Shown: positions 4,300 through 54,741 of the stretch, in pieces
Layout of the letters: each line of letters begins with the position of its first letter
Numbering within the stretch: the stretch's first letter is position 1
Source: Octopus sinensis
Taxonomy: Eukaryota
NCBI RefSeq assembly: GCF_006345805.1
Contig: NW_021832374.1
Location: 310,001 to 374,000 of the forward strand
Length of the DNA stretch: 64,000 nt
Reading direction: 5' to 3'
The notes under the pieces: model-generated
Told to the model about the DNA's origin: nothing
Seen by the model: the letters and a program-made list of their open reading frames with translations, nothing else
Database searches by the model: none
Program-made: the position numbers and the translations under genes

Positions 4300-5320
4300 T
4301 TAACTAATTAACTTTCCTTTTCCATATTAGTTTGCTCCGCCAAGTTTACTCTCGGAATCCTCTTCCCGCTATCTGTTCCCACTTCGGAGTTGTTTCCTTC
4401 ATCGGCGGAAACTACAGAATCTCGCCGTCTCTTCACCGATTTCCGTCCTTCGTCAAATGAGTTACCTGAGGTAGACATATTTTCGAAGCCAAATTTGTGT
4501 TCTACTATCATGCTTTCCATTGTTTTTTTCAAACCAACAGTCTGGATGTATGCTTGCACACTTTCTTTGATTTTAAGAAGGTCCATATATTTTCTGAAGA
4601 ATGTAGAGACTATCCCATCCCACGTGAGGACAATCGGTACAATCTTTACCTTAGCCTTGTGAATTAATTGTAATTCACTGGCTAGAATGTCGTATTTATG
4701 CATTTTTTCCACTTCCACCGATTTCAAATTATCTATCGAGGTAACACCCACTTCAATGATCCATATCAAATTTTCCTTCTTGTCATACAGGAATATATCA
4801 GGCTTGTTATATTGTATTTTTAGTTCAGTTGGAATTGTAGTATCGACCCGAATTTCCGCAGAGCTATTCGACATTATACACTGCACGGAGTGGTTTTTCA
4901 GTCTCTTGGACTTCTTCATTCCAAATCTCCGACACAAGTGCATGTGAACACACCTCACAATCTCGTTATGCCTTCTGGTATAATCTGAAATTAGCATTCT
5001 ACTGCATCGCGTCGCAAGATGGTCCACGGTTTTAGGCGAGGATTTACAATGTGGGCATTTTTCATCAGAGTTTCTGAAAAAGACGTTTCTGTCTTGAAGA
5101 AAAGAGAACATTGCCTCAGATTTAGGAGATATATTCCCTTTCTTTAGCCATGTTGAAGATGTTGGGATATCAAAAGTATTATTCTCAAGCGACTCAAATA
5201 GCTTCGAATGCAACCTTTTCTTTTTAATACTAAGCAACAGTGACTCTATCTGCAAGTCACGTAGTGATTTAGCAATCTCATCGAGTGTGGTTGTTCCATA
5301 TTTACAATGCAACAATCCTA
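4300..5320 (-). mobile_element. 5'-truncated R4/Dong-like RLE retrotransposon
   Basis: ORF 4308-5315 with CCHC knuckle (CPHCKSSPKTVDHLATRC) and RLE motif (KPDIFLYD...IIEVG...K); homologous to 33999-34910. Confidence 0.85.
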
Positions 5321-5573
5321 TTAAAATTTAAATCGTCATTATTGAAATTATCATAATGTACTGGTATTTATCGATTTCAAATAACACAACATTTACATTT
5401 GTTTACTCTATTTATATTCTCAAGCCTACTCCACCACCCTACAAATATGATGGAATAATCGCCAGACTTTTTAATTAATTGCACTCATTGAAACAAGTAT
5501 ATTCTCGAAGTACGAAAAATATTTAATTAAAATGGGGAATAAGTTATACACGAATTAATAAAGAGCCTGGAGG

Positions 5574-7019: not shown

Positions 7020-8900
7020 ATTAGACGAGGTCATGCTTTCCAACTATTAGACGTGAGACGTTGATGAAGGAAGTAAGACATTTGGAAACTTGTATCCTTG
7101 TTGACTTTGGAATGCGAAGGGGAATTTTCAAAGAACTTCGAAAGCAGGACAGTTTGAAGAAGAATGAGTTGACGTCCAATTGATGAGAGACTACTTTATT
7201 GAAAAATGGGTACTTTGCCATACACAATAAATGCTGAAGACGTCCATGTTTCCTCCTTTTTAACCATTAAACCCATCTGTTCCACACCATAAAACACATC
7301 CCGTAAGAACATCTTCATGTGAGTGGCAATGTCTGATAATTCTCTTTGCCTTACTGCTTCTGAGTCACCAGACACCAGTTTGTATGTGACATTCTCTCTA
7401 TTCAACGCTGTATTCGCCCTCGTGTCGTCATTTACAGTTGGCTCAAAAAGTCATAGCACCACTTAATAAATTTTAGTATTTTACGTTTTTACCCATAAAA
7501 TATGAAGTATTTTGACTTTTAATTATTTTTTCAAAAATTAAAGCATAACTCACTTTAAAATTTGAACGAACCTATATTTTTGTACTAAAAATTGACTTTT
7601 TTAATTCTTAAAAAAATATGCCGAATAAAATGAGGCATTAAAAAATATCTATCAAAAAAGATTAAAAAATTGCTCATTTTAATTATTCAAATGTATTGTT
7701 TTTATCTGTAAAAAATCCAGTTCAATTAAAAAGACAAATTTGTAGGATACATCCTGCAAGATCCCTCTCTCCATGTTCACTTCACCAATCTCTTTTTGAT
7801 TAAATCTCAGCTTGATCTTTCATTTCGTGACAATTTCCTTGATAAAATCCACAATCCAATGGGGAAGGCCGGAGTTATCGAGGACTTGATACAGAAACTC
7901 GTGATCGTAAGTCAAAAGCCTTCTTTACATCAATCCAGGCAGAAGGCAAATTATTCCCTTTTTGTTGATGGACACATTGGTTGAGAAATGCCTGCTCTTT
8001 GGCTCCTTGGCACATTCTTCTTGTCGCTGATCAAATTGTATGCTTCAATGTAGTTCGTCAATTTTCTGTTCACACATTTTGTTACAAGTTTATATAGATT
8101 TGACATGCAAGTAATCGGCCTCAGGTTCTTGGGTGAGTCACAAATTTTATTTTTGGGAGTAAGATGGGTAATCCCTGTGTAGAACCACTCACCAGGTGTG
8201 TACTTTCCATATATGATATTCGCGACTTTCTTACAAAGGTCATCGTGGACCGTAGTAAACTTTTTCAAGAAAAAATCGTATACGTCATCGCATCCACAGG
8301 CTCTTCCATTTGGCAGCTGATTAATGATCTCAATAATGGTGTCTTTTCCAAAATCAGCAGTTGTGTCCTCGGCACCAGTCACCCAATTATCCAATAAAAT
8401 CGAGTCCCCTACGGGCTCATGTTTTACCCAAATACTCTCCCAGAATGAGAGACACTGACTCTGGTCAAACATAAACTGTGTATTCTTTTTCTCAGTCAAG
8501 TTTCTGTAAAACGTTAAGTTCAAAACACATATTGTCCCTCCGGAATTTTTCCCTTGTTTCATGGGTTGCCAATTTTTTTGCAACAATCCTTACCTCATCC
8601 TGGATGCAGGTGACAATTCTAAATAAATCTCCTTTTTTGGCCTTCCGGTATCCATATTTGCTCAAAATGTCTCTCAATTCGTCACTGAATGATTTTCTCG
8701 TTTTGTCATTATTAGTTAGTGGTGTTACCAACTCGAGTTCCTTCCTAAGTTTGTCAAGCTTCGCGTTCATAATTCCAATCCACTCACTTTTTTACCGACT
8801 CGGTGGGTCAATGCATCATATGCTCGTTGGCCAGCATAGAGGATGTCGGCAATGTCATTGAGATTAGCCGGTTGATTTTCTTTCATAAATTTCCCTTAGT
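7020..8900 (-). mobile_element. R4-like retrotransposon, degenerate RT region
   Basis: FYRNL, ACGCDDVYDFFLKK, LRPITCMSNLYKLVT and AWIDVKKAFD...ERGILQ parallel the element at 35062-36866; stops and frameshifts. Confidence 0.8.
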
Positions 8901-11333: not shown

Positions 11334-12521
<1,188 letters not shown>

Positions 12522-13250
12522 TGATAAGAAATAGGTTAGATATGTAGTTCAAATATTTTATTAGTTTTTAGCCAAACAAAAAATAAACCATTAAATACCA
12601 ATAAAATAAATAATTTTTTAGGGTTTTAGGAAATCTGCAATTTCTTCGTTCTTTCGATCCCATTGATCACGACAAATCTTGTACAGCACAGGAAACAATA
12701 AGAGTTATTAGTTTGGTCCATTTCCTTTTATCTAAGTCTTTCCCTAGACTCCGAAGGTCTCTATCTATTATCTATATTGTTAGTAAAATAACATATTACG
12801 GGTTTCATTAGAAGAATATGAATTTCGCGTTATTCTCGTGTCCAATTCGACCGTTATTTTATTTGAAAATTCTACACGAAAATTACGACGAATAAGCTGG
12901 ATAAGTATTGGAAAAAATATCATTGATATATGTAAGCAAAATATATTACTCTGGAACGCAAATTATTTTCTATTATTAATTTTTTGACCAGATGACCAAA
13001 ACAACCATCATCCAGAAAACCCGATGGCAATGGTGAATCCAAAAATCCAGGTATGATGCTATCGTGGTTATCTAAATTTATAATAAAAAAGACATATTAC
13101 GGATTTCATAAAGATTGTCTGTTTTCATAAGGAGTGTTTTTGTTAGTCTTGTGTATTACGCGAGTACGACTCCATTCGGGTACGAGATGACCACGACCGT
13201 TGTTTTACTTTGAAAATTCTACACAAAAATTACGAATTAATGACCCACTA

Positions 13251-15240: not shown

Positions 15241-16135
15241 ATGGATTATCCTGCAGATACTGACAACTATTACGATTTTACTGAAAAGTCAGTCCGACAA
15301 GGTAACTTAATTATTATTCTAATATAGGATTTATAAGAAAAGTGTATTCCATCTTGACAATCCAGTTAATATATACTATTGGAGTGATATCCTTCTGCAT
15401 ATTCCAGTATAATTTATATCATAAATATGCCAGAGAGAGTGTAAGGGATTACCTCAATCAAAATCCATGGTTTATGTATACTAATCTGTATTTATAAACC
15501 TTTTATTTATAGGGCTTTGATGGTTGTTTTTATGCTTGCCATTTCCTGCTTTAGAAATAATGTGAGAAAAGTGCCGAGAAATTACATAATGCTATCCTTC
15601 TTTGTATTCGGTTTTGTCTATTTTAGACATTTTTCTTTGCAAACTACCTCGGAGCTGTCAGTAGGTTTGTTTTTTAGTATTTGTATCTCTCTGAGTTGTA
15701 TTTTTGATATTTTCAGTTTTTACTCAATTATGGCCGTTCTGCTGTCTATTGGGATCACAGCTGTTGTGGTTGTTGGATTGACTATTTTCAGTTTCCAGAC
15801 CAAAGTAGACCAGTTGGCTTATTGTAGATTGATTTTACGAAAACATCAGGCGCTGCCTTCTGTCTTTTGATAGTTCTGATTATATTTGGACTTATTTTTC
15901 CAATTTCTGGTGTTCCAATTCTTCACAAAGTGTATTCCTGTATTGCGGCTTTGCTTTTTTCGTGGGTTGGTGATTTGGTGCTTTGTGTTAGTATATTGTA
16001 ATTGACACACAAATGGTTATGGATGGACAGAAAAAGTACACCATTTCCCCCGAGGACTACGTTTATGCTGCACTCAATTTATATGTCGACATTGTCAACT
16101 TATTCCTTATCGTCCTTAGTTTTTTTAATGAATAA
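15241..16135 (+). CDS. Protein lifeguard / TMBIM (Bax inhibitor-1 family)
   Basis: FTEKSVRQGFIRKVYSILTIQL after removing the 26-nt intron 15302-15327; C-terminal SPEDYVYAALNLYVDIVNLF; start codon uncertain. Confidence 0.9.
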
Positions 16136-20719: not shown

Positions 20720-21907
<1,188 letters not shown>

Positions 21908-22789
21908 TGATAAGAAATAGGTTAGATATGTAGTTCAAATATTTTATTAGTTTTTAGCCAAACAAAAAATAAACCATTAAATACCAATAAAATAAATAAT
22001 TTTTAGGGTTTTAGGAAATCTGCAATTTCTTCGTTCTTTCGATCCCATTGATCACGACAAATCTTGTACAGCACAGGAAACAATAAGAGTTATTAGTTTG
22101 GTCCATTTCCTTTTATCTAAGTCTTTCCCTAGACTCCGAAGGTCTCTATCTATTATCTATATTGTTAGTAAAATAACATATTACGGGTTTCATTAGAAGA
22201 ATATGAATTTCGCGTTATTCTCGTGTCCAATGCGACCGTTATTTTATTTGAAAATTCTACACGAAAATTACGACGAATAAGCTGGATAAGTATTGGAAAA
22301 AATATCATTGATATATGTAAGCAAAATATATGACTCTAGAACGCCAAATTATTTTCTATTATCAATTTTTTGACCAGATGACGAAAACAGCCATCATCCA
22401 GAAAACCCGATGGCAATGGTGAATCCAAAAATCCAGGTTTTATGCCATCGTGGTCATCTAAATTTACAATAAAAAAGGCATATTACGGATTTCCTAAAGA
22501 TTGTCTGTTTTCATAAGAAGTGTTTTTGTTAGTCTTGTGTATGACACGAGTACGACTTCATTCGGGTACGAGATGACCACGCCCGTTGTTTTAATTTGAA
22601 AATTCTACACAAAAATTACGATTTGAAAGTTTCTAAAAGTATTGCCTTGCCTGCTTTCAAAAACAGCGAAATTAACAAATATTGATTCCGACAATTCAAA
22701 CCTTGATTTTTATTAAACATTAATCTTGGCTGAAGACTAAGCTATGGATAATGGATCTGGACAGTCGTGAGTTCGATTCCGAAGGAGGC

Positions 22790-25030: not shown

Positions 25031-25113
25031 TTTCAACTTTGTTTAATTTTTTAGCCTTTGGAAAAAATGAGATAAAAACAGGTATGTTTAGAAAAGAAAA
25101 TTTTATTAAAAAT

Positions 25114-25590
25114 CTACAAGTGTCCCAAGACTAATTTGACCCACTGTAGATGTGTTGTTGTTGAGTGCTGTGGTCGGAAACCATGTTGTGACTTTGAGAG
25201 AGTGAGGAAAGGGTAAATTGATTTCAGGACAAATTTTTCTAGGATTTTTGATATGACAGAGATAAGTGAGATTGGCCTGAACGAGGCGGGGTCGCAGGGG
25301 TCCTTATTGGGCTTCAAAATTGGAATTTTAATAGATTTTTTCCAGACCATAGGTATTAGACCTGAGTTTAGCGATGTTTTGAATATATCCGATAGTGCAA
25401 TCAACCCATTTTGGCCAAGATTTTTCAGATGGTATATGCAAAGACCGTCGGGTCCACAAACGTGAGAATTCTTAGCGTTTTTGATGAGTTGGCTTATTTC
25501 AGAAATCGATATAGTGATTTCTGGAGAGGGGATGTCCTTGTGACTGTAGTAACTTTTATAATGTGAATACAGACACATTTTCAAGTTTAA
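25114..25590 (-). mobile_element. Ingi/Vingi-like LINE internal fragment
   Basis: GPDGL...WKKSIKIPILKPNKDPCDPASFRPISL...SQHGFRPQHSTTTHL, homologous to 28500-28850. Confidence 0.8.
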
Positions 25591-28500
25591 GATATGTTTA
25601 ACAATCTAATTTTATCATTACAGTTCCATCTCAAATAATACGATTTTTAAGTTCCCAAAAGTCAACCGTACGCGATCTATTATGTATTTTAAATTACTTA
25701 CTGTATAGGCTTTTTTCAAAACAGAAAATGTCTAAATTTACAAATAGGTCTCAGTCAATAATGTATAATGTATAATTTTTTTATACTTAGATATTCTCAT
25801 ATTAGGCCCGAAAATAGAGGGCTTGAGAAAAGTATGGAAATAGACACAATTTGAAAGAATACTGCAACATTAGAAAAGAAGAAGCATATCGTCCGTTAGT
25901 TTACTTATAGTATCCTTAATCAATCAATATGATATGCAAAGAGCAATCCATCCAATCAAATATTCGATGTCGCTAATTTACTATATTTCCTTGTTTTACT
26001 TTTTATCTTTAATAAGTTTCAATTGCTACATACAGTAGTCACAATTAAATATACGATCACTAAAGATACATGTGTAGTACTTGACTCTATAAAATGATTG
26101 TTAATTCCACAAATGGTGCTACTTTAGTTTTCTTGTATTTAAATACCTGAATTTAATAACCTGTAAAAAAGAGTTTAGTATTGAGTAACTTTACAGTAAC
26201 ATGCAAATAAATACAATTTTTGTGCTAATTAATATCATTCAACTAAACCAATATTTCTCAACTATTATTGTAAACAAATGTATTTTCATAGAAAATCTAG
26301 ATGAGAGCAAAATTCCGAATTTTTAATCATAAAAATATGTATCAACATTCGGACATGTAATACTAAAAACATAGGAAGCATTGATCAATTACTTATTATA
26401 AAAAACAAATAATTTGGTGAGCAATTGAAATCGCACTTAATTAAATATTTGGATGCTACTAATTAATTAACACGGTTATTGATAATGCTCCGCACTTTCG
26501 CAATTAATTAGTACCATATATTAGATACAGGAGTCACAGTACGTACAAAACGTTAACGTGGATTACTTTGATAAATTAACTAACTGGTCCAAGGTTCCCA
26601 GCAGTTCTTCCAAAGCAAATACATCCTCACTTTGACGGATTCTGATATACCAGCTGCTCTACAGGAAAGATTGGAGGAAGGCACGACTTTGATTGTGATA
26701 GAATATTCGTCACTTCAGTTTCTCAGTTCGAATGCTACTACTGGGATATACAGAAACAATAAATTGTCCAATCATTCATACGTACGATTGATGTTTGACT
26801 AAACACTCGACGAAAGAAGACCCTATAATATAAATTTGTATTAAAGTTTATTAATTTTAATATAAACTAATTTTACTAACCAATAATTATTTCATTACGG
26901 TCAACATAGATATAATAGATATACTATCGCGCTCTATTTGTTGGTTTATTAATTATTTATTTTGTTATAGTGAATGGAGAGTAATATACTGTGGACTACT
27001 CACTCTTTGGTGGACTGTATAATAAAAAGAGACCCAGAAAAAGAACCGAAATATGAACCGAAATATACTCCTTTCATCAATCTTATTATTTATTTATTTA
27101 TTTATTACCCCCGGCCCCTTCAATTGAAGGAAGCCGGTGGCTAACAGAACGTTAGGGCAATGTCGGACGCTCCCAAAGATCCCCGATCGTGATCCGGTGT
27201 TCCGAGGAAGTAGAAGGCGGGCCTGGACAGGAGAAAAGGTCGTTGAGGGAATAGGAAGGGGTTATTTCACCAAGACCGATTTTTATGCGATAATCGTGTA
27301 GGCCAGTATGGTGGCCACAGCGGAGACGAGCCAAGTTCACTCGGGCTTCTCTTGAGAGGGAGGATTCGATCTTATTAATTGGCGGCGGAAGGCGTCCCAG
27401 AAGCTTGTTTATTCCAAGACATCTGATTGCCCTCGTAGCCACCAGGTCGTGAATCCCCTTCTGGTTAATGTCCGGAGGGGATCGTATAAGCTTGCGGACT
27501 TTGTCCGCGAGGGTCGGAACTATTCTCCTGTTGTTAGTGGAGTGCCAGAGGAAGTAGCCAGGGTGATTTAGGGTTCGGCATTTGTCAAGAAATTGCAGCC
27601 CGAGCATTTCAAAATGGTCACTGATTGGGAGGATTTTCGATTCCCAATGTAGGTGGTCGGTAGGTGTCGTTTTTAGACAGCCGGTAATAATTCGTAATGC
27701 TGAGTTTTGAGTTCTCTGAAGTTTTTCAAGGTTTGTATTAGATAAGCAGGAACCCCAAGCAGGGATGGCGTAGTTCATAGTTGTTCTAATAAACTGCTTG
27801 TATACAGTTGTTAGACTTTCCTTATCCTGCCCAAATGAAGTCCCCGCAATAGCTCGGAGCACATTGAGTTTTTTCTGGGATTTTCCACAGATATATGAAA
27901 CATGTTTCGAGAAGGACAAACAGCAATCAAATATCAGACCCAAGATTTTGGGGGATTTTTCAACTGGGAGTGGAGTGTTGTCTAGGAATAGTTTAGGCTC
28001 TAAGTTGAACTGACGGCGGTCAGTTGTGAATAGCGTAACAGATGATTTGGAAGGAGAAGGTTGAAGAAGATTGCATTTCAGCCAGGACGAAAGAGTGTTC
28101 ATGTGTTCCTGCAGAAATCCAGAAGCGGTGATTATGTTTTGGTGGCGGGAGGCAAAAATTAAGTCATCAGCGTAGGAGAGGAGTAGAGTATTATTGTTCG
28201 TCGGGATATTTGACAGATGTAAGTTAAATAAGGCAGGTGAAAGGACCGAGCCTTGGGGAACTCCGTTAGGCAAGTATTTGTAGCGTGAGTAAGAAGACAT
28301 GATTGTGGTGCGACCAAGACGCCCAGAGAGAAAAGAGAGTAGCCATGACTTTATTTGGTGGGGGAATTCCGTATCGGTTATTTTCCTACACAGAACGTGT
28401 CTTGACGTTCTGTCAAATGCCTTTTCAATGTCGATGGATGCAATAATTGTTCTTTGAGGTGGCTTATGATTGTTAAACCCATCCGCAATGAATTGTGTCA

Positions 28501-30179
28501 GTTTTGAAAGATGGGTGGAAGTGGAATGCAAAGAACGAAAGCCATGTTGAGATTCAGCAAATGGGAGGAAAGGTTTTATGATGCTCAATACAACTCGCTC
28601 TGTTATTTTTGAAACCACTGAGATCAAAGAGATAGGTCGAAAAGAGGAGGGGTCAGAGGTATCACGATTTGGCTTTGGGATAGGGATGATGGTAGATTTC
28701 TTCCAAAGCATAGGAACCAGACCATGGTTGATCGAGTATTCGATTAAATTGGTCAGAGCCAGAAAGCCATTAGGACCCAGATTTTTTAGGTGGTGGATGG
28801 CAAGGCCATCAGGACCTCTGGCGTTAGAATTCCGCGAGTTAACAACAAGTTGCCTGGTAAATGATTCTGGGATGTTAATATAGTCAGTAGAATTGTCATT
28901 TGACTTATAATGTGATTTTCTTACGAAACGGAGATCCTTTGGGGTAGGAAGGTGACTGATTTTTGCATAATGGCGAATTAAGATGTTGGCTTGATCCTGG
29001 AAAGATAGGACAGACTTTTTGGTCGAGATACCGGTGGCATGTGAGAGGGGACATGTTTGCCTCGTGTGAATTTTCTTGAGGGTTCTCCAGAAAGCACGGG
29101 ATCCAGTATTTGGGGTTATTGAAGTGATAAAATCATTCCATTCGTCAGTTTTATGTTTCTTGATTAATTCGTCAATTTGTTTGTTGATTTCTGCTAGGGA
29201 TTCTCCATTTCCATTGATAGAAGTCGTCGATTTGATCCTCCTTCGTTTTTTGAATAGTTCAATGATAGGTGGGGGGAAGTGGAGGCCGTGATTTCGGATG
29301 AAGCCGCGGGGAATAAATTTTTTGTCCGCAGAAAGAAGTGTACTAGTAAAGAAAGCAACGGCAGCGTCAAATGATTGAATGGAGGAGCAAGAAAAATTAC
29401 TGAATATACGTTCAGTTTCACTCCTGAACGAGTCCCATTTCCACGTTTGTAGTTAATGTAGGTCTTCGTAATTCTCTTCTTTACAGGGTGATGGTTTATT
29501 TTGATTAGAATAGGATTGTGGTCCGTTGGTAGGTCGTACAGAACTGTCCATTTGGCGTCGAGGGCGATGTTTGGGGAACATAAGGTAATGTCAGGAGAAG
29601 TGTTTGAATCTCCAGGTCGCATTGCACAGCGGGTGTGTAGAAGAGGGTCGTTTAGAGTGACCAATTCTTCCGCATCCGTTGTGATTTGCTGGCCACGTTT
29701 GTCAGTTTTGTTTGTGGATAACCAGAGAGGATGGTGGGCGTTGAAGTCGCCACATAGAATACAGTTTTCAATTGAAAAAAGAGGCAGTAAGTTCGGTGTA
29801 TAATTGGGAGCACATGACGAAATCGGGGGGATATATGTGTTAACAACAGAGTAACATATCTTGTTAATGTTAATTTGAATAGATGAAATTTCGGTAAATC
29901 GATCATTAGTTAAGAGAGATTCAATGTTGGCAGTTGAGTCTGCAAAGGGAATGGCCTCGTGAATGAGAGTAATGAGACCACCGCCAGGCTTTCCAGACTG
30001 GCGGTCACGACGAATGGTGGAATATCCCTTAAAACGGGGGGTTGGGATTTTGGAGTAAGTTTGGTCTCTTGAATAAGAGCTATATCAATAGAGTTCGTGT
30101 GTAGAAAGTAGCGTAGGTCATTGCATTTCTTGGAAATCCCGTTGATGTTCAATTGAAGGATGGTTAGTGTTCTAATAGG

Positions 30180-30250
30180 CTCAGGTCCAGGGTTTTGTTC
30201 CACATCTCCACACCGAATCAACAATAGAGTCAGGGAACGTAAGCTTGGCG
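30180..30250 (-). other. 2A ribosomal skipping peptide motif
   Basis: SLRSLTLLLIRCGDVEQNPGP fits the D(V/I)ExNPGP consensus directly upstream of the APE domain. Confidence 0.85.
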
Positions 30251-30309
30251 CTCGTCCCGTAGCCACTACCAACCAAACCGTTGACAGGTTGGTTGGCAAG
30301 GGGGAAAAA

Positions 30310-30381
30310 TTGGTTCTGTTTGTTGCTGATGAGAAATCAGCATCCAATCGTCTCCACGAGAAGGTGAACCACATGACGATC
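30310..30381 (-). ncRNA. Candidate HDV-like self-cleaving ribozyme at the retrotransposon 5' end
   Basis: P1 GAUCGUC/GACGAUU with a first G-U wobble starting at element nucleotide 1; P3 UUC/GGA; L3 ACCUUCUCGU; GG after P1; P4 UGCUGAU/AUCAGCA; P2 pairing is weak. Confidence 0.65.
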
Positions 30382-31279
30382 TTCATCAATCTTATTAAAA
30401 AAATGTCTTCAAAACACCAGAAATACCTCGACTCTGTAACCTCCCAATTGGAGTTGATAAATTCCCCTTTCGATACCACTCTCGTTTCTGTACTCGAACA
30501 AATGTTTCGAACAAACTCAGTAAATAGTTGGGGAGGACTGGTCATGCTATTTTTGTTAGCACATGATTTGGCGGAAAAGAATCCCGAATATAGTGGACTA
30601 ATAAAAGATGTATTCATCGAGCACATCAATCGGGTGTATTCTGGGTGGGTGTCCAGGCAGGGAGGATGGGTTTATATTCTGCCATCATTTATAGCACAAA
30701 CTATTCGTGGCTAAATATTTGGCAGTGGAGAATACGTTTAGTTTGGTTGGGTTTCTGTCATCTAAAATAACCAGTTTGTTTGTCAATTAATTATTATTGT
30801 TTTATTTATAAGATCAAAGTAATTGACATTTAATGTGGCCAGTTCGATCGGTTAAATCGATTTGGTTTTATAAGATAGTCATGTCCTATCGATTCTAAGG
30901 ACGATTTGGATATTGGCATTTGTAAATATTAATTAATTTTATGTTTCGTGGGGATGTTGCTCTTTGTCTATTATGGTCTATAAATACTTAATTGCTGTTT
31001 AATTTTAATCAAGTCGTTTAATAATTGTTGTAATAAATACTTCCAACTGTTTATTTATAGATATTTTAATAAGGTTTTAAAAAGAGATATGGCTCGAAAT
31101 GAAAACAGATTTTTGTGCCTAGTAGAAATCTGTCTTTTTCAAATAAAGATTAATATTATATAAATAGTGTTTATTGGAACTATATCTACTATAAAATTTT
31201 TATAATTAAAATAATTTTTGATTCTTATTAAAAATTTAATAAATTCATAAATTAGTACCCTTATGTGTGTAATTTTTTA

Positions 31280-33472
31280 ATGACTGAAACGATCAACTTA
31301 ACGGAGAATAATGAACCTAATAAAATTCAAAAAGAAATAATAATTCATTTTGATCGAAATAAATACTCAAGCACTGATTTCCCAACACTCGAATTCTATT
31401 ACGACGATCTCCTGGCTTCTTCTGACCAACTCAATTTAACCAGCAAAATACCAAAAAAAGACTCAAAGAACTAAGGGTATCGAAAAGAATTCAAAAAGAA
31501 TTTGTAAACAATCAAATCCATTTTAGAGTAAACTAATTGAAGACAGAGGAGTCAACGAACGGGAAGCTTTAATGCTCATGGAAAAATTTCCCCACCTCAA
31601 CTACGGTTATGACACATCCGACCCGTTCGTGGACGACTCTGAAATTGTATTTATCCCTAAAAACGTGTTGTAGTATGATGAATGCATTCCTTTCGATATG
31701 CGAACCAAAATTGAGGGGTTTTACTTGAATGACGGACCTGTGGAATATTATTTCGAAGATTCTGAACACTCCGACTCCGTGTTTACTCCCAAATCCAAAA
31801 GAAAGTGTAAAAACGAGGACAAACATCCAGAAACTGAAGCAAAAGACAAAAAAATAAACACAAAAACAAACAGTCTTCGAACTCATTTAAATCAACAGTT
31901 TCCGGATTTATAGCCAATTATGTGGAGAAGTGGTATTATATCATCGAATCAGCCTCCAATTTGGTATTTGGGGATTCTTTCGACCCGATTGATAGTCTGC
32001 TGTCACTAATCCCTTCAAAAATGTCCCAAACTATCGACAAGCTCATAACCCCGTTGTTTAAGACAAATGGTGGTGATCTTCTTGACGATTTGGTGGCCCA
32101 CAGTCCGCCAACCCGCCCTTCATTGACACATTTGGCCTCGGAACTGCCTGCTGGGTATTATCAGCCCGTTATTGCTGCTTTATATCGTTTTTTGGAGGTT
32201 TTGATGTTTTTGCAGTCTCTAGTCCATGGAATTGAAAGGTGGTCGTCTGGACTGCCCTCGCAAACCGGATTTCGAAGACACAAAAACATTATTTGTGTTA
32301 CTAAATAAGTAATATAAATTAGGTTATTCGTCAACTATCGACGATTTGGGCTGTCTGAGCAACAGTGGGAGACAATACAAAATATTATTTCAACTGGACT
32401 TAACTTGTCTCCAAAAACTGACAAAACATCGATTTTGAAGATATTGTGAAATGTTACTGCGGGGGGATTGACAAAGGGTTGATAGCTTGTTAGTAGTATT
32501 GGCACTACTGTCTAGATTTGCAGGACATTGAGAGGAGGGGCACAGGAGGAATCCACTCAAGTTTTTGTAAAAAAGCACAAATTCATATTTTCGTCTTGTC
32601 AAATGTACATATTTGTATATTTGTTTGTAGAAAGTTGATAAGAGCGGTATTTATTAATATATTTATTGGCCATCAATGTGGAGACCATGTCGATCGAGAC
32701 ATTTCTCCACCAAACAAACACGTTTTTGAATCATCTGGTCTCCGAATTTGGCGGAGTGGTTTGTGGAATAACGAGGAATGGACTGATGAAACAAGCAGAC
32801 ATTGATTTCAGTCCATTGAGACGTATTGTGAAGAAGAACGCACAGTAGTTCTCCATTTATATTTTAGATTGTCAAAAAGTGCCACAGAAGTGGGACAAGG
32901 CACTGATAAAACGAATTTCGGAGCTATCGAACCCACAAATATGTCACTTCCCGATAATATGACTGAAAAAGCAAACATTTGTGACAAGTCTGTTAATTTG
33001 GGGACAGTCTTCCTGAGATTTATACATCTCCGATTAAAACACCCGCCAACTGTGACCCCGAGAATATGATTTTGCCGAGCAGTTCTAATTCACTCATATC
33101 CCAACCGATTGCTATAAATTCGGGGAAAAGTAAGGCACAGACGTGTGTCCCCGATTCTCCCCCTGTGAAGAGGTCTTCCCTTCCAAATTCAGTTGGGGAT
33201 ACATCATATGGGGGGTTGTTTTCTCCTGTCCAAAATACGGGCTTGTTGATGAGGCCTTCACAGAATGTGCATATTGGTGGGGGACTGCAGTCGAGTCCGT
33301 CCGACATCCATTTAATGGGGAGAATTATTGGCAGTCGCTGAACAGAGCGTTTTTGAATCCTCGGAATAATTTGTTTTTTACTCCAAGTTCCAAGTATTCC
33401 TCCTATCTTTGGAATCCATCACGACCAAAACAGAGACCTTCCAGCTATCAACATAATCGACCTCCATACTGA
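31280..33472 (+). CDS. UBN: Ubinuclein / yemanuclein-like histone chaperone (multi-exon)
   Basis: HUN motif YGYDTSDPFVDDSEI-YDECIP...TKIEGFYLNDGPVEY across a 27-nt intron, followed by a Ser/Pro-rich tail; the 3' extent is inferred. Confidence 0.72.
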
Positions 33473-33959
33473 TTCACTATTTGTACATTTATGTATTATG
33501 TGTCCTATAATTTTTGGAAATTTCTCAGTGACAGATTGTTTGAGCAGGGTTTTTCAGTAGTTAAGAAATCAAATGTTAAGGCAGAGTTTGGATGCGATGT
33601 AAATATGAAATTATTTTTATAAAAAATACTAGATCTGGTTTCCATAAAAATTGTATATTTCCAGCTCTGTTTATTTTAATCTGTTCCCCGATTCGAATTC
33701 TTTTTTGGTTTACTATAGACTTCATTATTTAAAGTTGTTGAAAAATTTTAGCCTAATGAACTTACACTACATTTTGAAAGCGTAAATCTTGATTCATCAT
33801 CATTGAGTTTGCCTTAATTGGCATTTACAAATCAAAGAATGTTAAGTAAAACGATTTTATTTTTATATTTTGAAAACACGACTTTTTTAAACTAAAATCG
33901 AGGTTAATCAACAAATTTTATTCGTTGCTTATCATTGCAGTAGTTGCCGATTTTTAAAC

Positions 33960-36900
33960 CAATAATAACTTAATAGTTAATCAGAAACTAAGCAGATCTC
34001 ACTCCAGCTCGCTGATATCCACTCTCCTTCTCTTGGAAGAAGAGTCTACTTCCAGCTGCCTCTTACTCCCCACTACCACATCTGATTCAACCATTGCATC
34101 TTCTTTAGCATTCATTGGGTCGTCTTCATTTTTGCATGCCATCTCCACATACCGGTTGGAAGCAGAAGCGTATTCTTCACCAGATACCTTCATTCCGTGC
34201 TTGTGTTCGATCATCATACTCTCGAGCGTTCTTTTCAGTACAACGGATTGGATGTATGTCCTCGTTCCTGCTTCAATAGATAATTTCTTCATATAATTTT
34301 TGAAGCATTTCGAGACAACTCCATCCCATGTCATAACCACAGGAATTATTTTTACTTGACAGCTATACAGAAGCGAAAGCTCACTTGCCAATAGGTCATA
34401 CTTGTGACACTTTTCAACCTCCACTTGCTTGAGGCGATCCTGTGAAGTAATACCCACTTCAATTAGATTTATTTCGTTTCTGACTTTGTCGTGGACAAAG
34501 ATATCTGGCTTGTTATATTCTACTTTTGTTTCGGTGAGGATTGTAGAATCAACCCTGATTTCAACTTTTCCCGTCGACAGTGTTGACTGAACAGAATGTC
34601 CCTTCAATCGTCTTGCTTTTTTGAGTCCATACATTCGGCACAAGTTAAGGTGAATACACTTCACAACTTCGTTGTGTCTCCGGAGATAATCACTGTTGAG
34701 CATTTTACCACACTGAGTAGCCATGTGGTCAACAGTTTTCTTGCTTTTCTTACAATGATTGCATAATGAGTCAGCGGATGCAAAGAACAAGTTTCGATCT
34801 TGCAAAAGACAATACAATGCTTCGCTTCGTGGCCCATTATTTCCATTAGATAGCCATTCTGAGGATGCAGGTAAATCAACATTAGGTTCATCCACACATT
34901 TGAAAAGCACAGAATGTAGTGCTTTAGAACTAATTTTCTTTTGTAAATATTGTATCTGACTGGACTTTAGAGACTCTATAGTAATACTCTTCTATCAATA
35001 ATTGCATATTTGGAGGATAGAAATCCTGCGATCATAGCCAAATGCCATTTATTCATTTTAATTACACGCAGAATCCCCGCCCTCCGTAAGCATATAGTTG
35101 ACATATTTTCCAGACTCGTAAGGAACTGAAAAGCATTAGTTCACTTTTGAAAGTAACTGATGAAAGCCCTCTTCCAAGAGCCTTCCGGTTTAAATACAGT
35201 CTCTCTTTATTTGCAGGTTTGAGATGTAATCTGAGCGACGTAAGCAATTGCCGTATTTGTCTGTCAATATCATCAAATTCAGAAGGTTCAATATTGATTA
35301 GCCCAATATAATAATTATATAGTGACAATGCATATTCATTTATAGCACGAAACAGATTCACAGAGTTGAGTTTTGTTTTCGATAGCATAGTTATCCTCTT
35401 CTTAACATTCTCAAAGATAGAGTCCATAACTCTATTCTTAAGAACATTGCTTCCACCATCTTCAAGTACACCCAAATACCGATATCCATTGATTCCGTCA
35501 ATAGTCTTACAACATGATAATGATTCCAAATTAGACGCTGATTTTTCTGAATTCATCTCCAAACCAACAATTTTAAAAAATCCGTTAACAGCTTCCATCA
35601 TTTTGAGTAAAGTGTCTTGTTTGAGAGCAAATATTTTTAGATCGTCAATAAATAGCAAATGATTAGTAGAATATGTTAACATATTGGGATCTTCCTGGTT
35701 AATTTCAAGTTTTGGAAACACGGAATTAAGGATCCTGCTTAGAGGATCTAATACCATAACAAATAGTAAAGGAGACAATGAGTCTCCCTGTAAAATTCCT
35801 CGGTTTAACTTCACTGATCCAATTCTTCTACCTTCCATATGCAGCTTTACTGCCCACTTCTTAACTACGCTCTTCACAAAGTTTACGATCCAAAGCGGGA
35901 TTCCAGAACAATCCAAAACGTGAAACAAAAAATCATGATCAACTGAGTCATATGCTTTCTTCACATCGACCCAAGCAGAATAAAGGCCATTCCCGTACTC
36001 CTTGTTCAAACATTGGTTAATGAGAGCTTGCTCCTTGGCGCCTTGACAATACTTCCTCGTTCCAAGTTGGTTGTCTGAAATTAGGCCAAATGCCTCGACA
36101 AAATCAGCCAGTTTTACATTAACACATTTGGTGACAAGTTTATACAATGTCGGCATACACGTTATAGGACGTAAGTCCTTCGGGGTCTCACAATCATCTT
36201 TTTTAGGAATCAAATATGTTATTCCAGTGTAAAACCAACTTTCAGGCATGTACTCTCCATTAATTATTCGGGTTATCTCGTGACACAGAAATCCATGTAA
36301 TGACTCCATCTTCTTAATGAAAAAGTTATATATCCCATCACATCCACATGCCTTCCAGTCAGGAAGATACTTAATAACATTTCCAAAAAACTCTTCCGTA
36401 AACTCTGGAAGCATATGTTCAGCACAAGTAGTTCGTTTTCCAACAACGTCATAAGATTGAGGCCTCCATTTCTCTCGCTCCAGACTTTTTGCCAAAAAGA
36501 GACACATTCTTCATCATCAAATCCATACAGCGTCACTTCCTCTTTCTTTGTTAAGTCTCGATAGAATCTTTTTCGATTTAATTCAAAGCACTGATTATCC
36601 TTACGAAATTGCTTCCTTGAATTATGAACTTCTATTTTCTTATTGTTAATCCTAATCAGGTCTTGCAATAATATCTGAATCCTCGACAGCTCACCTTTCT
36701 TAGTTTTCTTATACCCATAGCGACAGAGAACATCCATTACCTTTTGCTTTTCAGATGGAGGTAGTGTTTGATTGGAATGGGAATTAACAATTTCCAATTC
36801 TGCAGATAATTTTGAAATTTTCTTTTCAATATTTTCTACCCATGTGCTCTGTGCTTTGTCTCTCATGGTTAGAGATAAATACGCACATTGAGCAGCATAT

Positions 36901-37600
36901 AGAATATCAGAAATGCTATTGATATCATTAGGATGATTATCTTTCGTATATAATATATCGCCGAATTCAATCCTGTCAATATATCAGTTTTCAAATATTT
37001 ATTTTGAATTTTTGGAGTTGGTTTACGTGAATCCCTTGGAATCGATTCAATATTCTTAATTTGTATATTCAACTCTTCTAGACACTTTCTAAAAGTGGAA
37101 ATTTCTGAGCTCTCAAGAAATTGCTTCTGATGGCAATTGCTTCCATAATTATTATCCACTCTCATTGGTTTAACCATTCCTTTGAGTTGACTGAGACTTG
37201 CACTCTTCGAGAATTTTGAATTAAACTTCTCACGGATAAGGTTCCATCCACCTCTTGGTATCCTCCCAATTCTTTGCTTCGTGGCATAAACAATCTGAGA
37301 CACCCACTCAGCTTCAGAAACACAAATAGCATCATCGATAATGGCCGAAAGGGAATGCAAGTTAGTTGGGATAGTAGGATTCCCAGCAATTGGATTGTCA
37401 TGAATACTAGTCCTTGTGCTGTTATCCAGCCCCAGAGACGACACTCCTGCACTTGTTATGTTATTTTTATCCTTTTTCGCAGGAAGGCCCCTAGGATTCG
37501 ATTTCCTCATATCATTAGGAACGGACATGCACAACACCACAACAACTAATTCTTTCCCCTTATCATTGCATAACAAAGTTTATTTTAAATAAAAAAAGTA
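33960..37600 (-). mobile_element. Near full-length R4/Dong-like RLE retrotransposon
   Basis: Consecutive ORFs 36869-37576, 36273-36866, 35062-36507 and 33999-34910: Myb-like N-terminus, RT (DVKKAYD, GILQGDSLSP, LFIDD, YLG), CCHC knuckle, KPDI...IEVG endonuclease; broken by small indels. Confidence 0.9.
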
Positions 37601-40454: not shown

Positions 40455-41645
<1,191 letters not shown>

Positions 41646-41964
41646 TGATAAGAAATAGGTTAGATATGTAGTTCAAAAATTTTATTAGTTTTTTAAAATA
41701 GTCAAACAAAAAATAAACCATTAAATACCAATAAAATAAATAATTTTTCAGGGTTTTAGGAAATCTGCAATTTCTTCGTTCTTTCGATCCCATTGATCAC
41801 GACAAATCTTGTACAGCACAGGAAACAATAAGAGTTATTAGTTTGGTCCATTTCCTTTTATTTAAGTCTTTCCCTACACTCCGAAGGAAATCTGGAATTT
41901 TTTATTTTTTCAATTAAACTTTAAAAAACGATGAATAATTCGTAGTGCCGATAGCGGCGGAGAC

Positions 41965-46039: not shown

Positions 46040-48613
<2,574 letters not shown>

Positions 48614-50352
48614 TTCTTTATTCACATTAATTAGAATGCGAAATGATTTATTTACGTGCTTTAATCTTGTGTAATAAATCAGGAATATTTGCGTTTTCTG
48701 AACTAATTCACCGGCTACCGTCAATTATATAGATTTATGTGTTTTATTATACTATTTCGACGATTTTCAATTTGTTTGAAAATGTATAGGCTCAGTTGTT
48801 TAACCCCAGTATATTCAAAAAATAAGTTACCCTTCAGAATGCCATATCCACATCAGAGTGGCATATGAACTAGCCTTTACAGGTCATTTGAGTCGTTTCT
48901 ATTTTATGGACTCCTGTTAAAATCATTATTCAAAATGATCAGTATTGTTGATCTTGGCACTTCGGGAATTTCTGACTTAAAAATTAAAATACTTTAAATC
49001 TATTGGCTAATTCTATGATAACAACATTTCGACAAACGTACGTATTTTGGCATCTTCTTCGACCTTCGATTTGACCATATTTATTCAATTGTGTTTTTAG
49101 AGTTTTCTTAAACAAACAGTTATTTTTACTTCACTACTTATAAAAACCTATATCAAACTGATGCCCTTAATATTAGTTGAAATATTTCATTAGTATTATT
49201 TGTGCTCACGTTGTAACTAATTTTCGGAATGTTTGATAAATTTAATAGACTAAACAAGATATTTGAACCAAATTTGTATAATATGTCGCATCCCATGCTG
49301 GATACATGTCACCTGTCAACACATCATTTTTACGAGGTCACTGATTGTCAGATGTTATAATTAATGTGGTTTTTATCATGCGTTACTCGAGCGGGACATA
49401 TTTAATATTTTTTAGCGTTATTTCTGAATTTTCAACATATCTTCTCTAAAATGTTTTCGATACAATTATTAAACGAAGCACTTTCATATATAACATTCAT
49501 TCTTCAATAAACGAAACATCATTTAAAATCTGAAAGGAGTTTCTGGAATAAAGTCATTCATGAGTATAAAAGTTTTTCAATTTTTTTAAATTTTAAAGAA
49601 ACTGAGAGTTTGGATGATTTTTATCCACTATTGGATGTAGAAAATATTTTAGATGTTTCAGGTAAATTTTGTATAAAGTATGCTAGGAAACTTGGATGAT
49701 AATGACTTTATTAATTTTTCTTAACCGAATTTAAATTTCATTGTATTTTAAACAGATGAATAAAAAATGAATGTTCATCAATCCAAATACGATTTTACAA
49801 TTGGGGATGAAGTATGTTTATTGAATATTTGGTAGGTTCACAACCAGCCGAAATTATTTAATTTTTGTCATACAATCGACTAGTAGTTTATTTCTTAATT
49901 ATGTATATCAGATTGAGACACGTTCGGGGAAATCTAAAATAATTAATGTAAAAACATAAACGCTTAATTTTGATAATTTTTTTTATTTTTGAAACGGTTA
50001 TTGATTAAAAACAAATGGAATTAAAATTTTTTGGAATTAATTCTTCGTCACTGTGACAGGCATTATGACAGATTGACGGGTGATATATATGGGTAGCTCG
50101 TGCTGGACGCGACATAATACATAAGTTCTCTCTATATAGCTCTTCCATACTTGAATGGTTTGGAAATAAAAAATTGCAAATTATCTAAGATTGATTTTTT
50201 GTTTTAAATTTTTATCTGTAAATTAATGCTGATGTCCCATAGACAAGAACATTCGAAAAAATATACAGAAATGACTTCTACTCACCATAAATTAAATTAT
50301 TATTTAAAGTTTAATTTTGATGAAAAATAGTTTCCATAGTTTTTATTTATAA

Positions 50353-53300
50353 ATGGAACAAACGTCGAGCTCAACCGTAAAAATAATCGTGACAATAAAC
50401 AAGTGCGAAGGAATTGTATTTCTAATTTATTAATATATTTTAAGATAAGTACAAAATCTTCAAATTTTAATTTACTTTTAAAAAGTGAATTTTGCGGTAA
50501 AAATTTTATCGAGTCAACAAAAATTCCCTGTTCAGAAGAAACTTCTTCCTTTGATTATTCAATAGTTCTTCCAGTAACCATAAATGACATTACAACTGCC
50601 AATGAACTGGCGAATAATCCAATAGTCGGTGAAAATAATTTTTTTAAGTTTTTAGTCCAGGCCTATGAGATTTTGTCTAAAGAAAAAAAACAAAAAGAAG
50701 AAAAAATGAATCTTTTAGGATATTTTGAAATTGATCTTTTACAAATCATTGAGAATCAGCCTTCAGTCTCGAATTCAGTCTACCTTATCCCAAATGAGTT
50801 AATTTATACGGAAGAATTGATGAAATCTGCAAATAACGTGATTTTATTTTATTTACTACAAATAGTTTATATTTCACTATGAAATTAAATGTCCGGAAAT
50901 TATTTTTTCAAAAGATCTTTTAAGTTCTTGGACAAGATTGTCATTCACAGTTGGAACACTTTTTGCAATTCCAGAAAATATGAATAATCCAAATAATATT
51001 TTTATTGCTTCAATATTGTTACCCTTGGAGAATGAAGTAAATTTAATTTTTATTTTTTAGAAAGAAGAAATAGCATGTTATTTTAACGGACAAATCAGAC
51101 AAAGCAACGAAACTTCTAATTGTGGAAAAAGATATCCAAAATTATCGACGTTTTCAAAACCTTTAAACCGAAGAATAGCCTTTGATCAAAATCTAAAAAA
51201 TTGTCAGAATTGCCTCGCAGAAATGAAAGATATTCCTTTTGGAAAAGAACGACGACTTCTGGAGACAAGAAACCCTCGTATAGAATGGAACATTGAAATT
51301 AATTTTTACATCACCACAGAAGGAATTTCTGAGTTTTTTTTATTTCTAAATTGAAAAGGCTTAAAAGAAATATCACAAAAAACAGGTTTTTACCAATCGA
51401 AATCTGCGCTTACAATCCCAATCCAGGTATCAAAGGAAAAAAGGCATTTTCTGAAGTGATTACTTTCAGTTTGATGACGATTCTCAGGTTTTGTTTCACG
51501 GATTATCTTTCGTCAATTTCTGGCCGCTGTTATACCCAGGGGAGACCGATTTTGAAGGTGCCTTTTTAGTGAAAAACTTTGACAAGACTGAATTGTTAGC
51601 CAAGGTCAGTTCCTCTTTCTTAATTATTAGGGAGGACGAAAGAAAATTTTTACTGACGACTTCATAACTACTTCATATGCTACTTTCATGTCTCCAAGTC
51701 CTTCAAAGACTAAAAGAGATGACAAAAAAGAAATGAAAAAAATTCCTCCAAAGTTAATCATGACTCCATCTGAAAGAACTGAGCAAACCAGTTTCGAGGA
51801 TGGGAAAAGCTTTTTGACAGTTACGTGCTCAATAAACAAGCCTATGGTCCCCAAAAGAACTCGAGATCAGTTGGGGGATAGGTATTCTGTAAATGTCTAA
51901 TTTTAATAGTGTCTACAAGTATGTCGTCTCTAAAAGACCTAAGCCGTCACAGGAATCATTAGCTGATAAAGTTTATTTAAAAAATAAAGTTTTAGGCTGT
52001 TGAAAATTTTCAAAATGTCATTTCGTCCGTTTCTGATTCTATTTTAAGCGAGTTGTGCAAAATGATGGATTGTGCCTCTGTCGATGAACTCACTGCAGAA
52101 AAATGGTTTCACAGTAAATTTAAATATCACAAAGGGAATCCAAATTAGTTATGGAAATGAATTCTTCCGATATTTATTACGAAATCAAAGAAAAAGTGAA
52201 ATTTGCAATCATCAATATTGTAAGAGAAAAGTGTTTGCAAAAGTCAAAGTTTAAAAGTGAAAGCGAATTTAACGTTTATTTATATTTAATTAGAATTAGA
52301 CTTTTTTGTCTGATTTGTATGTTTTCTTGATGGATCAAATACACATTTCTCTCAATAAAAAAATCTCCGCTGTCGACGTTGTCCCCGAACCTCAGCCGTC
52401 TTTGTCAATAGAACAACTTGAATTTTTTGCAGACGAAGCCTACTCGATAAATAAATTTCAACTCTCAGCAGATTACATAAAACAAATTCTTTCCAGAATA
52501 CCAAATTCAGCCAAACATTGGCTCAAGTTGGCGGTTACTTCACTGAGAGTAAACGACATGGAAAGTTCCCTCTACTATGCTGAACAATGCCTGTTCTACG
52601 ACCCTTTGAACTACGACGGGTAGATTCTGTCATGAAAATGGTATATAGGCAAATATTTACATCAATAATGACCGCTCTTCAAAATGACTATCAACGAGCT
52701 GAAGAGATTATGGAATATAACGTCGAATTGAATCAAGAAAATAACACTTCGCTAATTATTATGGGTTACTGATTGAATTATAACAAAATAAAAGGACTTC
52801 TTTATGAACAAAATGGGAATGATCTCAAAGCAGAAATGGCATTTCGATATGCCAATTTAAATACTGACAAATGTGAAGATTTTCCTCTTTCCACAGCCGA
52901 CATTTTTCTAAAAAATGGTTTTTTAAATCAGATTTTAGAAATGTCAGAAAGGAATTCTTCAGTCAAAAAATTTAGTTTTGAAAGCATGGTCTTAAATTCT
53001 CCAAAAATTAGCGAAAATGAAGTGAAAATTTCCTCAAATAGAGACTCTAACGATCCCGCCTTTTTGACAGCAGCAAATTGCTTATTTTCCCTCAATCTAA
53101 TTCTTGTTAATTCCCCCCAAAATTAATTTTTCAGTATGCAGAGAAATCTCTCTCAAAAATATACACAGAAAAATCTCCAGAATACAACATTCTTAAAGCC
53201 CGAATTGCCTTATACAGAAAAGAATATGCTCAATTTGACAGCATAATTGACACTTCATTGGTCGAATTGGTCGACGAACCTGCCATTTGGGCTCTGATTG

Positions 53301-53832
53301 GGCATAGTTTGTATGAAAGAGAAGATTACAGCAAGGCAGTAGACGCCTATAATCGCTATATCGACATGTTGGGCGAGAAAAGTGAAATGCATGCAGTACT
53401 TCTACGTCTTTCGGAGATATACCTGAATAAAGAAAAGTACTCCGAAGCGAAATATGTATTCAAATTAGCCACACAAAATAATCCGACATATATGACGTGG
53501 CTTGGTTTGGGAATTTGTTGTTATCGGGTTTGAATTGAACAGGAGATAACTAATGAGTAGATTGGAGAGATCGAAGAAGCTGAAATGGCACTCTGTGAGG
53601 CAAATTGTTTGAACAGTCTCGATTTTAAAGCGTGGGCATATCTTTGTCTGATTTCTATCAAAACAAAAAGGCAAATGGAGGCGGAACAGTCATTTAAATA
53701 TGCGATAAGAGTTGATTTTATTGTTATTGGTTTTTGTAGTTGGGACTTGAGGAATATCCGGAGTTGTATGGGGAAGTCACTGACTTACAATCGAGTAGTG
53801 GATTTGGAAATCCACAATTTAATTTTAGTTAA
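50353..53832 (+). CDS. CFAP70: Cilia- and flagella-associated protein 70 (TPR protein)
   Basis: EILSKEKKQKEEKMNLLGYFEIDLL near the N-terminus; C-terminal TWLGLGICCYR, EAEMALCEAN, RQMEAEQSFKYA, GFGNPQF; many mini-introns. Confidence 0.85.
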
Positions 53833-53900: not shown

Positions 53901-54391
53901 ATGTTTCTACCCGTGTTAAGTAACGCCTTTAAAAGTTTTGGCTTAAGAATAAGAAGTTCCTCGACTAAAACGAGCGAAATTGAGTAATAAAATAATTCTA
54001 AACATTCAGCTATTATTTCAAAATGTACGAAAAGAGACTCTCAGTGATACCCCCTGCTCCAAAACTGAAACACGAAACAGTCATCAAATACGGAATTGAG
54101 GACGGGAAAATGATATCCTGCAAACAAGTTGTCGACAAATTTTACAGACTCAACAGCGGGTTATGGATAAGGACTTTTGGGACTTGCAAAAATTATTTAA
54201 AGCCATATAGCGAACGTAAAAGAATGAGAGAACATATTTTTTGCACAAAAAAGCAATGCAAAACACTCGATAAGATGGTCAGTCCAGAATTCAAGCGAAG
54301 ACGATATTATCCCGATGATATTTACGAAAATTACCACCATCGAAGTAATTTGAGTACAGCCCCCACTCGTCCACGCCCATTTTGGCCTTGA
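53901..54391 (+). CDS. MRPL35: Mitochondrial ribosomal protein L35
   Basis: VVDKFYRLNSGLWIR...RKRMREHIFCTKKQCKTLDKM...RRYYPDDIYENYH; the 5' exon is approximate. Confidence 0.85.
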
Positions 54392-54741
54392 AAATTATTT
54401 TTTCTTTACTTTTATTAAATTTGCAGTAAATAAAAAGTTATTTCTTTTTTTACAATCCTTTTTATTAAAACTTGAAAAGGTATTATCTGTACCCAGCATA
54501 TTCCTATATGACGTTTAAAGCCCCACATTCTCATATTCAGAAATAAAATTACATCAGTAGAGGAACGTGGAAGAAGAATTTGTTTCAATATAAAAGAATT
54601 TTGTCGACATTTTGGATGTAAAAAATCATGTTCTCCAATAACAGCACTATTCTACAGAACAGGATTGGGGCAACTGAAGTGAGGAATATGCAATTCCAGG
54701 TTCTTAAAAAACATAATAAAGACTTGTATTTCAAAATAATA

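Follow-up and report, generated by a model that had tools for sequence, protein, structure and literature searches.

The window, a stretch of 64,000 nt from the Octopus sinensis genome assembly GCF_006345805.1 (2.7 Gb; contig NW_021832374.1, forward strand, positions 310,001 to 374,000), contains a Bcl-2-like gene whose first exon is interrupted by a full-length Vingi-like retrotransposon of the type without long terminal repeats (Table 1). The structure is, with good probability, a very recent, low-frequency null allele in a population of dicyemid parasites whose DNA was read along with that of the octopus host. The insertion is probably a real, ordinary and rare allele rather than a lost gene.

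An earlier note, made from the letters of the window, had placed copies of a 16-mer on both sides of the element, at 27073-27088 and 30382-30397. Both copies are exact, without a mismatch, and are located at the ends of the element, one adjoining the (TAAA)n tail and the other the 5' start common to the family; the probability of such a repeat by chance at a given place is about 3e-9. Removal of the element and one 16-mer copy leaves the in-frame open reading frame (ORF) that had been proposed, which runs from the ATG at 26974 for 160 amino acids with the intron removed, or for 143 codons to a stop if unspliced. The duplicated 16-mer aligns with the BH3 helix of the host Bcl-2 protein, and the suggested insertion in the helix at the BH3 position is thereby borne out. 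The ORF at 30157-30714 (previously 30160-30714) is antisense sequence of the element fused to the 3' half of the gene, again as expected.

The window protein is, by its sequence profile, a member of the Bcl-2 family. The 3' half of the gene scores 40 bits against Pfam PF00452 (gathering cut-off 31.4), and in the PDB the sequences that match it best are Bcl-2, Bcl-xL chimeras and Bax; the 5' part, 26974-27088, gave no match on its own in the Pfam search. BH2 ends in GGW, in the form W-x(4)-GGW, with a conserved intron behind it, and an exon boundary at this place is kept in Bcl-2 genes (PMC8998228). Other GT..AG pairs are formally possible in the reconstructed gene. The 25-nt intron named in the earlier note is preferred because it is placed alike in the uninterrupted copy described below, directly after GGW, and because two read contigs (records 17 and 26) are exactly 25 nt short somewhere within this region. 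The canonical BH1 motif NWGR is not present: the window has SWGG and the uninterrupted copy CWGG, so that Trp-Gly is retained and Arg is gone. The pro-apoptotic BH3 signature L-x3-G-D is also absent, with Ile-Lys in place of Gly/Ala-Asp. The hydrophobic tail of the earlier note is present and conserved, but its hydrophobicity is only moderate, with a best 19-residue Kyte-Doolittle mean of 1.35 compared with 1.98 in the host protein and 2.03 and 1.54 in references; it would be weak as a membrane anchor. Because the BH1 Arg and the BH3 Gly-Asp are missing and the tail looks weak as an anchor, the role in apoptosis is treated as putative.

This gene can be compared with a copy on contig C7755 of the same assembly (854 kb), which has no element and in which the target sequence is present once. 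This copy confirms the empty-site join and the intron, which is found at the matching place with a length of 29 nt. Over 161 codon positions the two genes have 99 identical codons, 31 silent differences, 25 residue changes and six gapped positions, corresponding to a synonymous divergence (dS) of 0.51 and a nonsynonymous divergence (dN) of 0.094. The dN/dS ratio of 0.19 indicates that the sequences evolved under purifying selection. A 1-nt gap within an A run of the C7755 copy is likely an error, because in copies of the element on contigs of this kind between 1 and 16 indel columns are counted per 3.27 kb.

Four of seven sequencing runs (X1-X4) were compared, all as assembled contigs, and allele frequency is taken from contig depth. 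X1 is the likely source DNA run and therefore not independent; X3 comes from another study under another organism label, X4 comes from another study, and X2-X4 are classed as RNA for the sole reason that introns are skipped in their contigs. The empty-site joint is present in X1, X2 and X3, as expected for the polymorphic insertion that the earlier note had considered possible; in X2 and X3 it joins position 27054 to 30382. The uninterrupted record 17 of X3 has four differences in 304 nt (98.7% identity) and falls 25 nt short of the genomic span; it is likely a spliced transcript of the window gene type. X4 has a type that is 93% alike, with an identical 25-nt gap and without a frameshift. In X1, record 3 matches 30382-30792 (411 nt) with no differences and with the intron kept. 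It has 374 further letters outside the element, and the empty 5' flank in this stretch has 373; from these lengths we infer that the record runs into the empty flank and that the window-type empty allele occurs in X1. Record 3, at 33.6, and the C7755 type, at 35.8, account for the X1 depth in the bin 30396-30626 and leave less than 3 units for the filled junction. The likely source DNA appears to hold mainly the empty allele, and the filled one is likely rare.

The ends of the element and the duplication are observed; the mechanism is drawn from established target-primed reverse transcription. The single protein of the element, carrying APE endonuclease and reverse transcriptase, would nick the AT-rich target, reverse transcription would be primed from the (TAAA)n tail, and the staggered cut would leave the duplication. 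In the filled allele, translation from the gene ATG ends at 27142, after 56 codons, within the element, and with this early stop no Bcl-2 fold would be produced. The empty allele, observed in X3 and X2 and inferred in X1, is likely transcribed and spliced. Four or more intact distant paralogs and the syntenic C7755 copy likely make up for the loss. The recent knockout put forward in the earlier note is not sustained as a meaningful one, as the empty allele appears dominant even in the likely source DNA, these other copies exist, and the role in apoptosis is putative, with the BH1 Arg and the BH3 Gly-Asp pair gone.

Several observations weigh against this explanation. The filled allele is known from the assembly alone: among the read-contig pieces listed, none bridges either junction of element and gene, and contigs drop rare variants. 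The window-type empty joint in X1 follows from lengths and is not directly displayed. The C7755 copy, with its 1-nt gap and a longer branch (0.25 compared with 0.03), may not be functional. The dicyemid-type 18S sequence discussed below is located on contig C1618 and not on the window contig (C8845), which leaves the taxon circumstantial. In addition, the X1 depth of about 34 over the Bcl-2 gene rises to about 205 at 31033, and this step is not accounted for. At 31032-31033 the majority path, with a depth of 171, turns off into a repeat end that looks like a DNA-transposon terminus; the repeat is matched exactly 11 times in the assembly. This path also does not have the 48 nt at 31154-31201, and the depth over HPC2 is six times that over Bcl-2. 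Either there are some five additional copies of the HPC2 segment, or a transposon-adjacent deletion has removed this Bcl-2 copy from most chromosomes of this type.

The insertion might instead be fixed in one parasite clone or cryptic species as a lineage knockout, the empty alleles being derived from co-infecting lineages. Several sequence types (99%, 93-95% and about 86% alike) occur together in the read contigs, mixed dicyemid infections are reported (PMC6736024, PMC12953835), and the filled form is the one carried by the assembly. However, X1 record 3 is identical to the window over 411 nt and yet appears to enter the empty flank, and very little depth is left in X1 for a filled junction, so that this explanation is considered unlikely. 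A chimera of the assembly or library, one of the conditions under which the earlier note would have been refuted, agrees with the many indel errors of these contigs and with the missing junction-bridging short-read contig among those listed. A mis-join, however, would not place a perfect 16-nt repeat precisely where the family has its 5' start and its 3' tail, and the same anatomy is found at 16 of the 17 other full-length places; a chimera is very improbable. Least probable of all is a filled allele that is not null, in which an antisense transcript from the 5' end of the element, with ATG 30373 or 30160, would give a Bcl-2 protein without helix 1 (BH4), a form that turns pro-death in mammals: the antisense frame with its two in-frame ATGs is open for 75 codons into the 3' half of Bcl-2, but no contig across 30381/30382 among those listed and no promoter evidence were found, the BH3 Gly-Asp pair needed for killing is missing, and the allele seems too rare for selection to have acted.

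Table 1. Positions of the parts of the interrupted Bcl-2-like gene and of the inserted element in the window.
Feature	Positions	Strand	Basis or remark
Bcl-2-like exon 1, 5' part (ATG, predicted helix 1, start of the BH3-position helix)	26974..27088	+	Colinear with C7755, which has no element here
12-nt tandem duplication (4 codons, twice)	27043..27066	+	Without counterpart in C7755 or in the X2/X3 empty-site contigs
Left target-site duplication copy, 16 nt	27073..27088	+	Exact repeat
Vingi-like non-LTR (long terminal repeat) retrotransposon, full-length, 3,293 nt, antisense to the gene	27089..30381	-	17 other full-length places
(TAAA)n 3' tail of the element	27089..27107	-	Sequence; tail in other copies
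Reverse transcriptase domain	27935..28681	-	Pfam RVT_1, E 5.7e-33
APE endonuclease domain, Pfam-matched part	29509..29850	-	Pfam Exo_endo_phos_2, E 2.4e-14
Putative 2A-like motif DVEQNPGP, residues 57-64 of the element ORF	30183..30206	-	Sequence
ATG on the antisense strand of the element, in frame with the Bcl-2 3' half	30373..30375	+	Second ATG at 30160
Right target-site duplication copy, 16 nt	30382..30397	+	Exact repeat
Bcl-2-like exon 1, 3' part (BH1-position SWGG at 30526-30537; BH2 ending in GGW)	30398..30669	+	Pfam
Intron, 25 nt, GT..AG, directly after GGW	30670..30694	+	C7755 intron; read contigs lack 25 nt
Exon 2 (31-residue tail and stop)	30695..30790	+	C7755 differs at 3 of 31 residues

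The reduced animal that the earlier note had envisaged is likely a dicyemid, and we hold the origin of the contig from such a parasite to be highly probable because short introns, a dicyemid-type 18S and a cephalopod host come together in the same assembly. The Bcl-2 gene on a large chromosome of the assembly is 100% identical to an Octopus protein. A separate 18S sequence of 1,667 nt is found on a small contig (C1618:6101-7767, L066), while the host-type 18S is about 2,600 nt long. It contains the site of the dicyemid primer F3 with two mismatches; the exact F3 pattern has no match in the assembly. The Rfam 18S search scored 12 of about 4,490 candidates and cannot count parasite species. Read contigs skip 23-27 nt at single introns, and the introns of the Bcl-2 pair are 25 and 29 nt, a small sample; published intron lengths for dicyemids are 27 nt as a median (PMC6543705) and 26 nt as a mean (PMC2222250). 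A homolog search with a piece of the Groucho gene gave two matches, and no named dicyemid protein was returned. Dicyemids live in the kidneys of cephalopods and are rich in long interspersed nuclear elements (LINEs) (PMC6736024). They keep the Bcl-2 domain and myxosporeans do not (PMC6343361). A myxozoan origin, suggested by the short introns, was dropped on this last point and because the host is a cephalopod.

The window and C7755 are syntenic, with Lifeguard-like, Bcl-2, HPC2/ubinuclein and Groucho-region genes that are 72-87% alike, while the transposon copies common to both are 96-98.7% identical. One duplicated genome is somewhat favoured over two co-infecting species with transposon exchange, because young transposons are shared, the X1 depths of the two types at Bcl-2 are equal, X2 and X4 each appear to hold the two, and gene pairs with 87-89% amino-acid identity are described within one dicyemid (PMC2222250). 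The shares of duplicated BUSCO genes in other dicyemids, 1-4% (PMC6543705), weigh against a duplicated genome. The young family of the element is absent from all 854 kb of C7755, where only an 86% copy is found; at such a copy density this is uninformative. The 86% copy represents a subfamily and is located 4 kb from the C7755 Bcl-2 copy.

The search of the genome for intact paralogs that the earlier note had proposed was made with one distant paralog as query and, besides the syntenic C7755 copy, it did reveal intact genes. Ten matches were found at eight places: four intact intronless frames of 160 amino acids, two frameshifted near-copies, one partial copy and the window itself. At least four intact paralogs with a predicted Bcl-2 fold that are invisible to Pfam thus exist, none of the four having a Pfam match at E up to 0.1. 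When three of them were combined into a profile, it agreed with a Bcl-2 profile at a probability of 94.6%; in the PDB sequence profile search with three of them no Bcl-2 was found. A profile of the parasite rows retrieves seven Bcl-2 proteins among eight matches, a language-model search with one paralog ranked Bcl-2-like clusters first with low recognition, and a word-index homolog search with paralog L004 gave no match. The model of paralog L052 (pLDDT 83.5) has its best structural match to zebrafish NRZ (Z 13.0, root-mean-square deviation 2.8, 131 aligned residues), and the titles of its 36 highest-ranking structure rows all name Bcl-2-family or poxvirus Bcl-2-like proteins; the model was built from an alignment holding Bcl-2 homologs and leans toward that fold. 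Foldseek gave no match at E up to 0.001, although every row listed is a Bcl-2-family chain. In a poorly resolved tree, from which host rows (L011) and broken loci (L056-L058) were left out, the six parasite Bcl-2 rows fall on one side of a branch with 84/21 support.

Contigs of the parasite type (C9076 and C8459 with two genes each, C6408, C10363 and C8692; L052-L060) carry an expanded family of intronless Bcl-2-fold genes of about 160 residues. The family is below Pfam detection, has no clear hydrophobic anchor (the best 19-residue Kyte-Doolittle means of two intronless paralogs are 0.57 and 0.45) and includes some recent near-identical duplicates. A further Pfam-positive Bcl-2 gene, of host or parasite, is found on the unplaced contig C2292 (L007), with no short intron seen after GGW.

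The element was described in the earlier note as a recent, full-length retrotransposon, and its relatives support this. A DNA search of the assembly, in which 40 of 106 candidates were scored, gave 48 matches, none of them on contigs C1-C30. Including the window there are 18 full-length places, which are 97.9-99.6% identical and have both ends in common; target duplications of 8-16 nt are present at 17 of the 18, and two places (L021 and L025) have flanks in common. One open frame of about 1,094 codons is retained at two of 20 loci examined. At L015 the ORF has 1,093 amino acids, with DVEQNPGP at residues 57-64 followed by APE and reverse transcriptase; a profile scan at E up to 1 found only RVT_1 and the endonuclease and no Pfam RNase H match. 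Single-base gaps divide the window copy into three frames. Errors of the assembly are their likely cause, because the four gaps at 27145, 27157, 29440 and 30041 are filled in the contigs of X1, X2 and X4. In X4, which is from another study, the element is represented by a contig of 3,149 nt that has 13 differences. No Rfam family was found in the window, and thus no ribozyme resembling that of hepatitis delta virus (HDV) was detected at the 5' end of the element. By the near-identity of its copies the family is very young, and it is likely active. The family combines APE and reverse transcriptase, a simple-repeat tail, variable target-site duplications and 5'-truncated siblings, the hallmarks of target-primed reverse transcription. 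The element is called Vingi-like by its domain content, since a single ORF and the absence of RNase H separate Vingi from Ingi (PMC13708176). A truncated, older relative of the family is located 1.5 kb upstream, at 25106-25605.

Other genes are found in the neighbourhood. A Bax inhibitor-1/Lifeguard-family gene (15445-15975; Pfam Bax1-I, E 0.0012, below the cut-off) is located 11 kb from the Bcl-2-like gene and is syntenic in C7755, so that two cell-death regulators lie close together. Three near-identical cathepsin propeptide fragments (12153-12548, 21540-21953 and 41280-41672), the first with an Inhibitor_I29 match, suggest local duplication or capture by a mobile element. Retrotransposons of another type occupy 33999-37579, 4311-5327 and 7954-8858; one end is 98.7% identical to copies in C7755, and we take their arrangement to be a reverse transcriptase followed by a tail that looks like a restriction-like endonuclease. 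Genes with short introns are present at 31256-33600, 46597-48823, 50340-53530 and 54002-55623. They include an HPC2/ubinuclein-like gene (HUN, below the cut-off) and a mitochondrial L35-like gene, and presumably a Groucho-like WD40 gene, a TPR gene resembling ciliary CFAP70 and a PHD-like gene.

The insertion itself is ordinary; the hidden dicyemid genome, the divergent Bcl-2 family and the possible genome duplication are of more interest. The two syntenic scaffolds, about 86% alike with much younger shared transposons and equal read depth, can be taken together with at least five intact-looking, mostly Pfam-invisible proteins of viral size that have no BH3 Gly-Asp or clear membrane anchor. 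They allow the tentative and rather doubtful suggestion that a parasite of about 30 cells has a duplicated genome and an expanded Bcl-2 family, the spares of which would let a 2A-bearing Vingi-like element knock out members without cost. The unplaced contigs of the host assembly hold a long-read genome of a likely dicyemid, which could be filtered from host analyses and mined; dicyemids are among the least-sampled animal phyla. Their Bcl-2 repertoire here looks expanded and highly divergent, unlike that of myxozoans, which lost Bcl-2. The element represents a likely active family that is Vingi-like, compact and of one ORF and yet has a 2A-like motif, a combination that does not appear in the excerpts of PMC3708506, and Vingi-1_Acar is in use as a gene-writing tool (PMC13708176). 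A literature search, with subscription journals mostly outside its scope, gave no account of the element, of the dicyemid Bcl-2 repertoire, of dicyemid polyploidy or of dicyemid contigs in octopus assemblies; the supplements of dicyemid genome papers, outside that search, may list these genes. Dicyemids are not mentioned in the excerpts of PMC11463336.

Compared with known systems, the arrangement belongs to the general class of polymorphic exonic LINE insertions, with a full-length antisense element, a target-site duplication, an early stop and an empty allele; only the organism, likely a dicyemid within a host assembly, is unusual. The gene resembles multi-motif members of the Bcl-2 family such as Bcl-2, Bcl-xL and Bax in its PF00452 score, BH2 motif and intron after GGW, and the order of helices is retained in the predicted model of the folded paralog. 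It differs in the SWGG without the BH1 Arg, in the BH3-position helix without Gly/Ala-Asp and in the weakly hydrophobic tail. With about 160 residues it is as short as many viral Bcl-2 proteins. The element shares with the Vingi clade (for example Vingi-1_Acar; PMC13708176) a compact single ORF, APE and reverse transcriptase, no RNase H match and dispersed insertion. However, its ORF of 1,093 residues is longer than the 993 quoted for Vingi, and it has a 2A-like DVEQNPGP, while no 2A-like sequence is reported for Vingi in the excerpts of PMC3708506. According to the same source, members of the Ingi/L1Tc clade typically have one ORF whose 2A-like motif lies 40-80 residues from the N-terminus and immediately ahead of APE; the element resembles this clade in that respect and differs from it in having neither an RNase H match nor an Rfam-detected HDV-like ribozyme at the 5' end.

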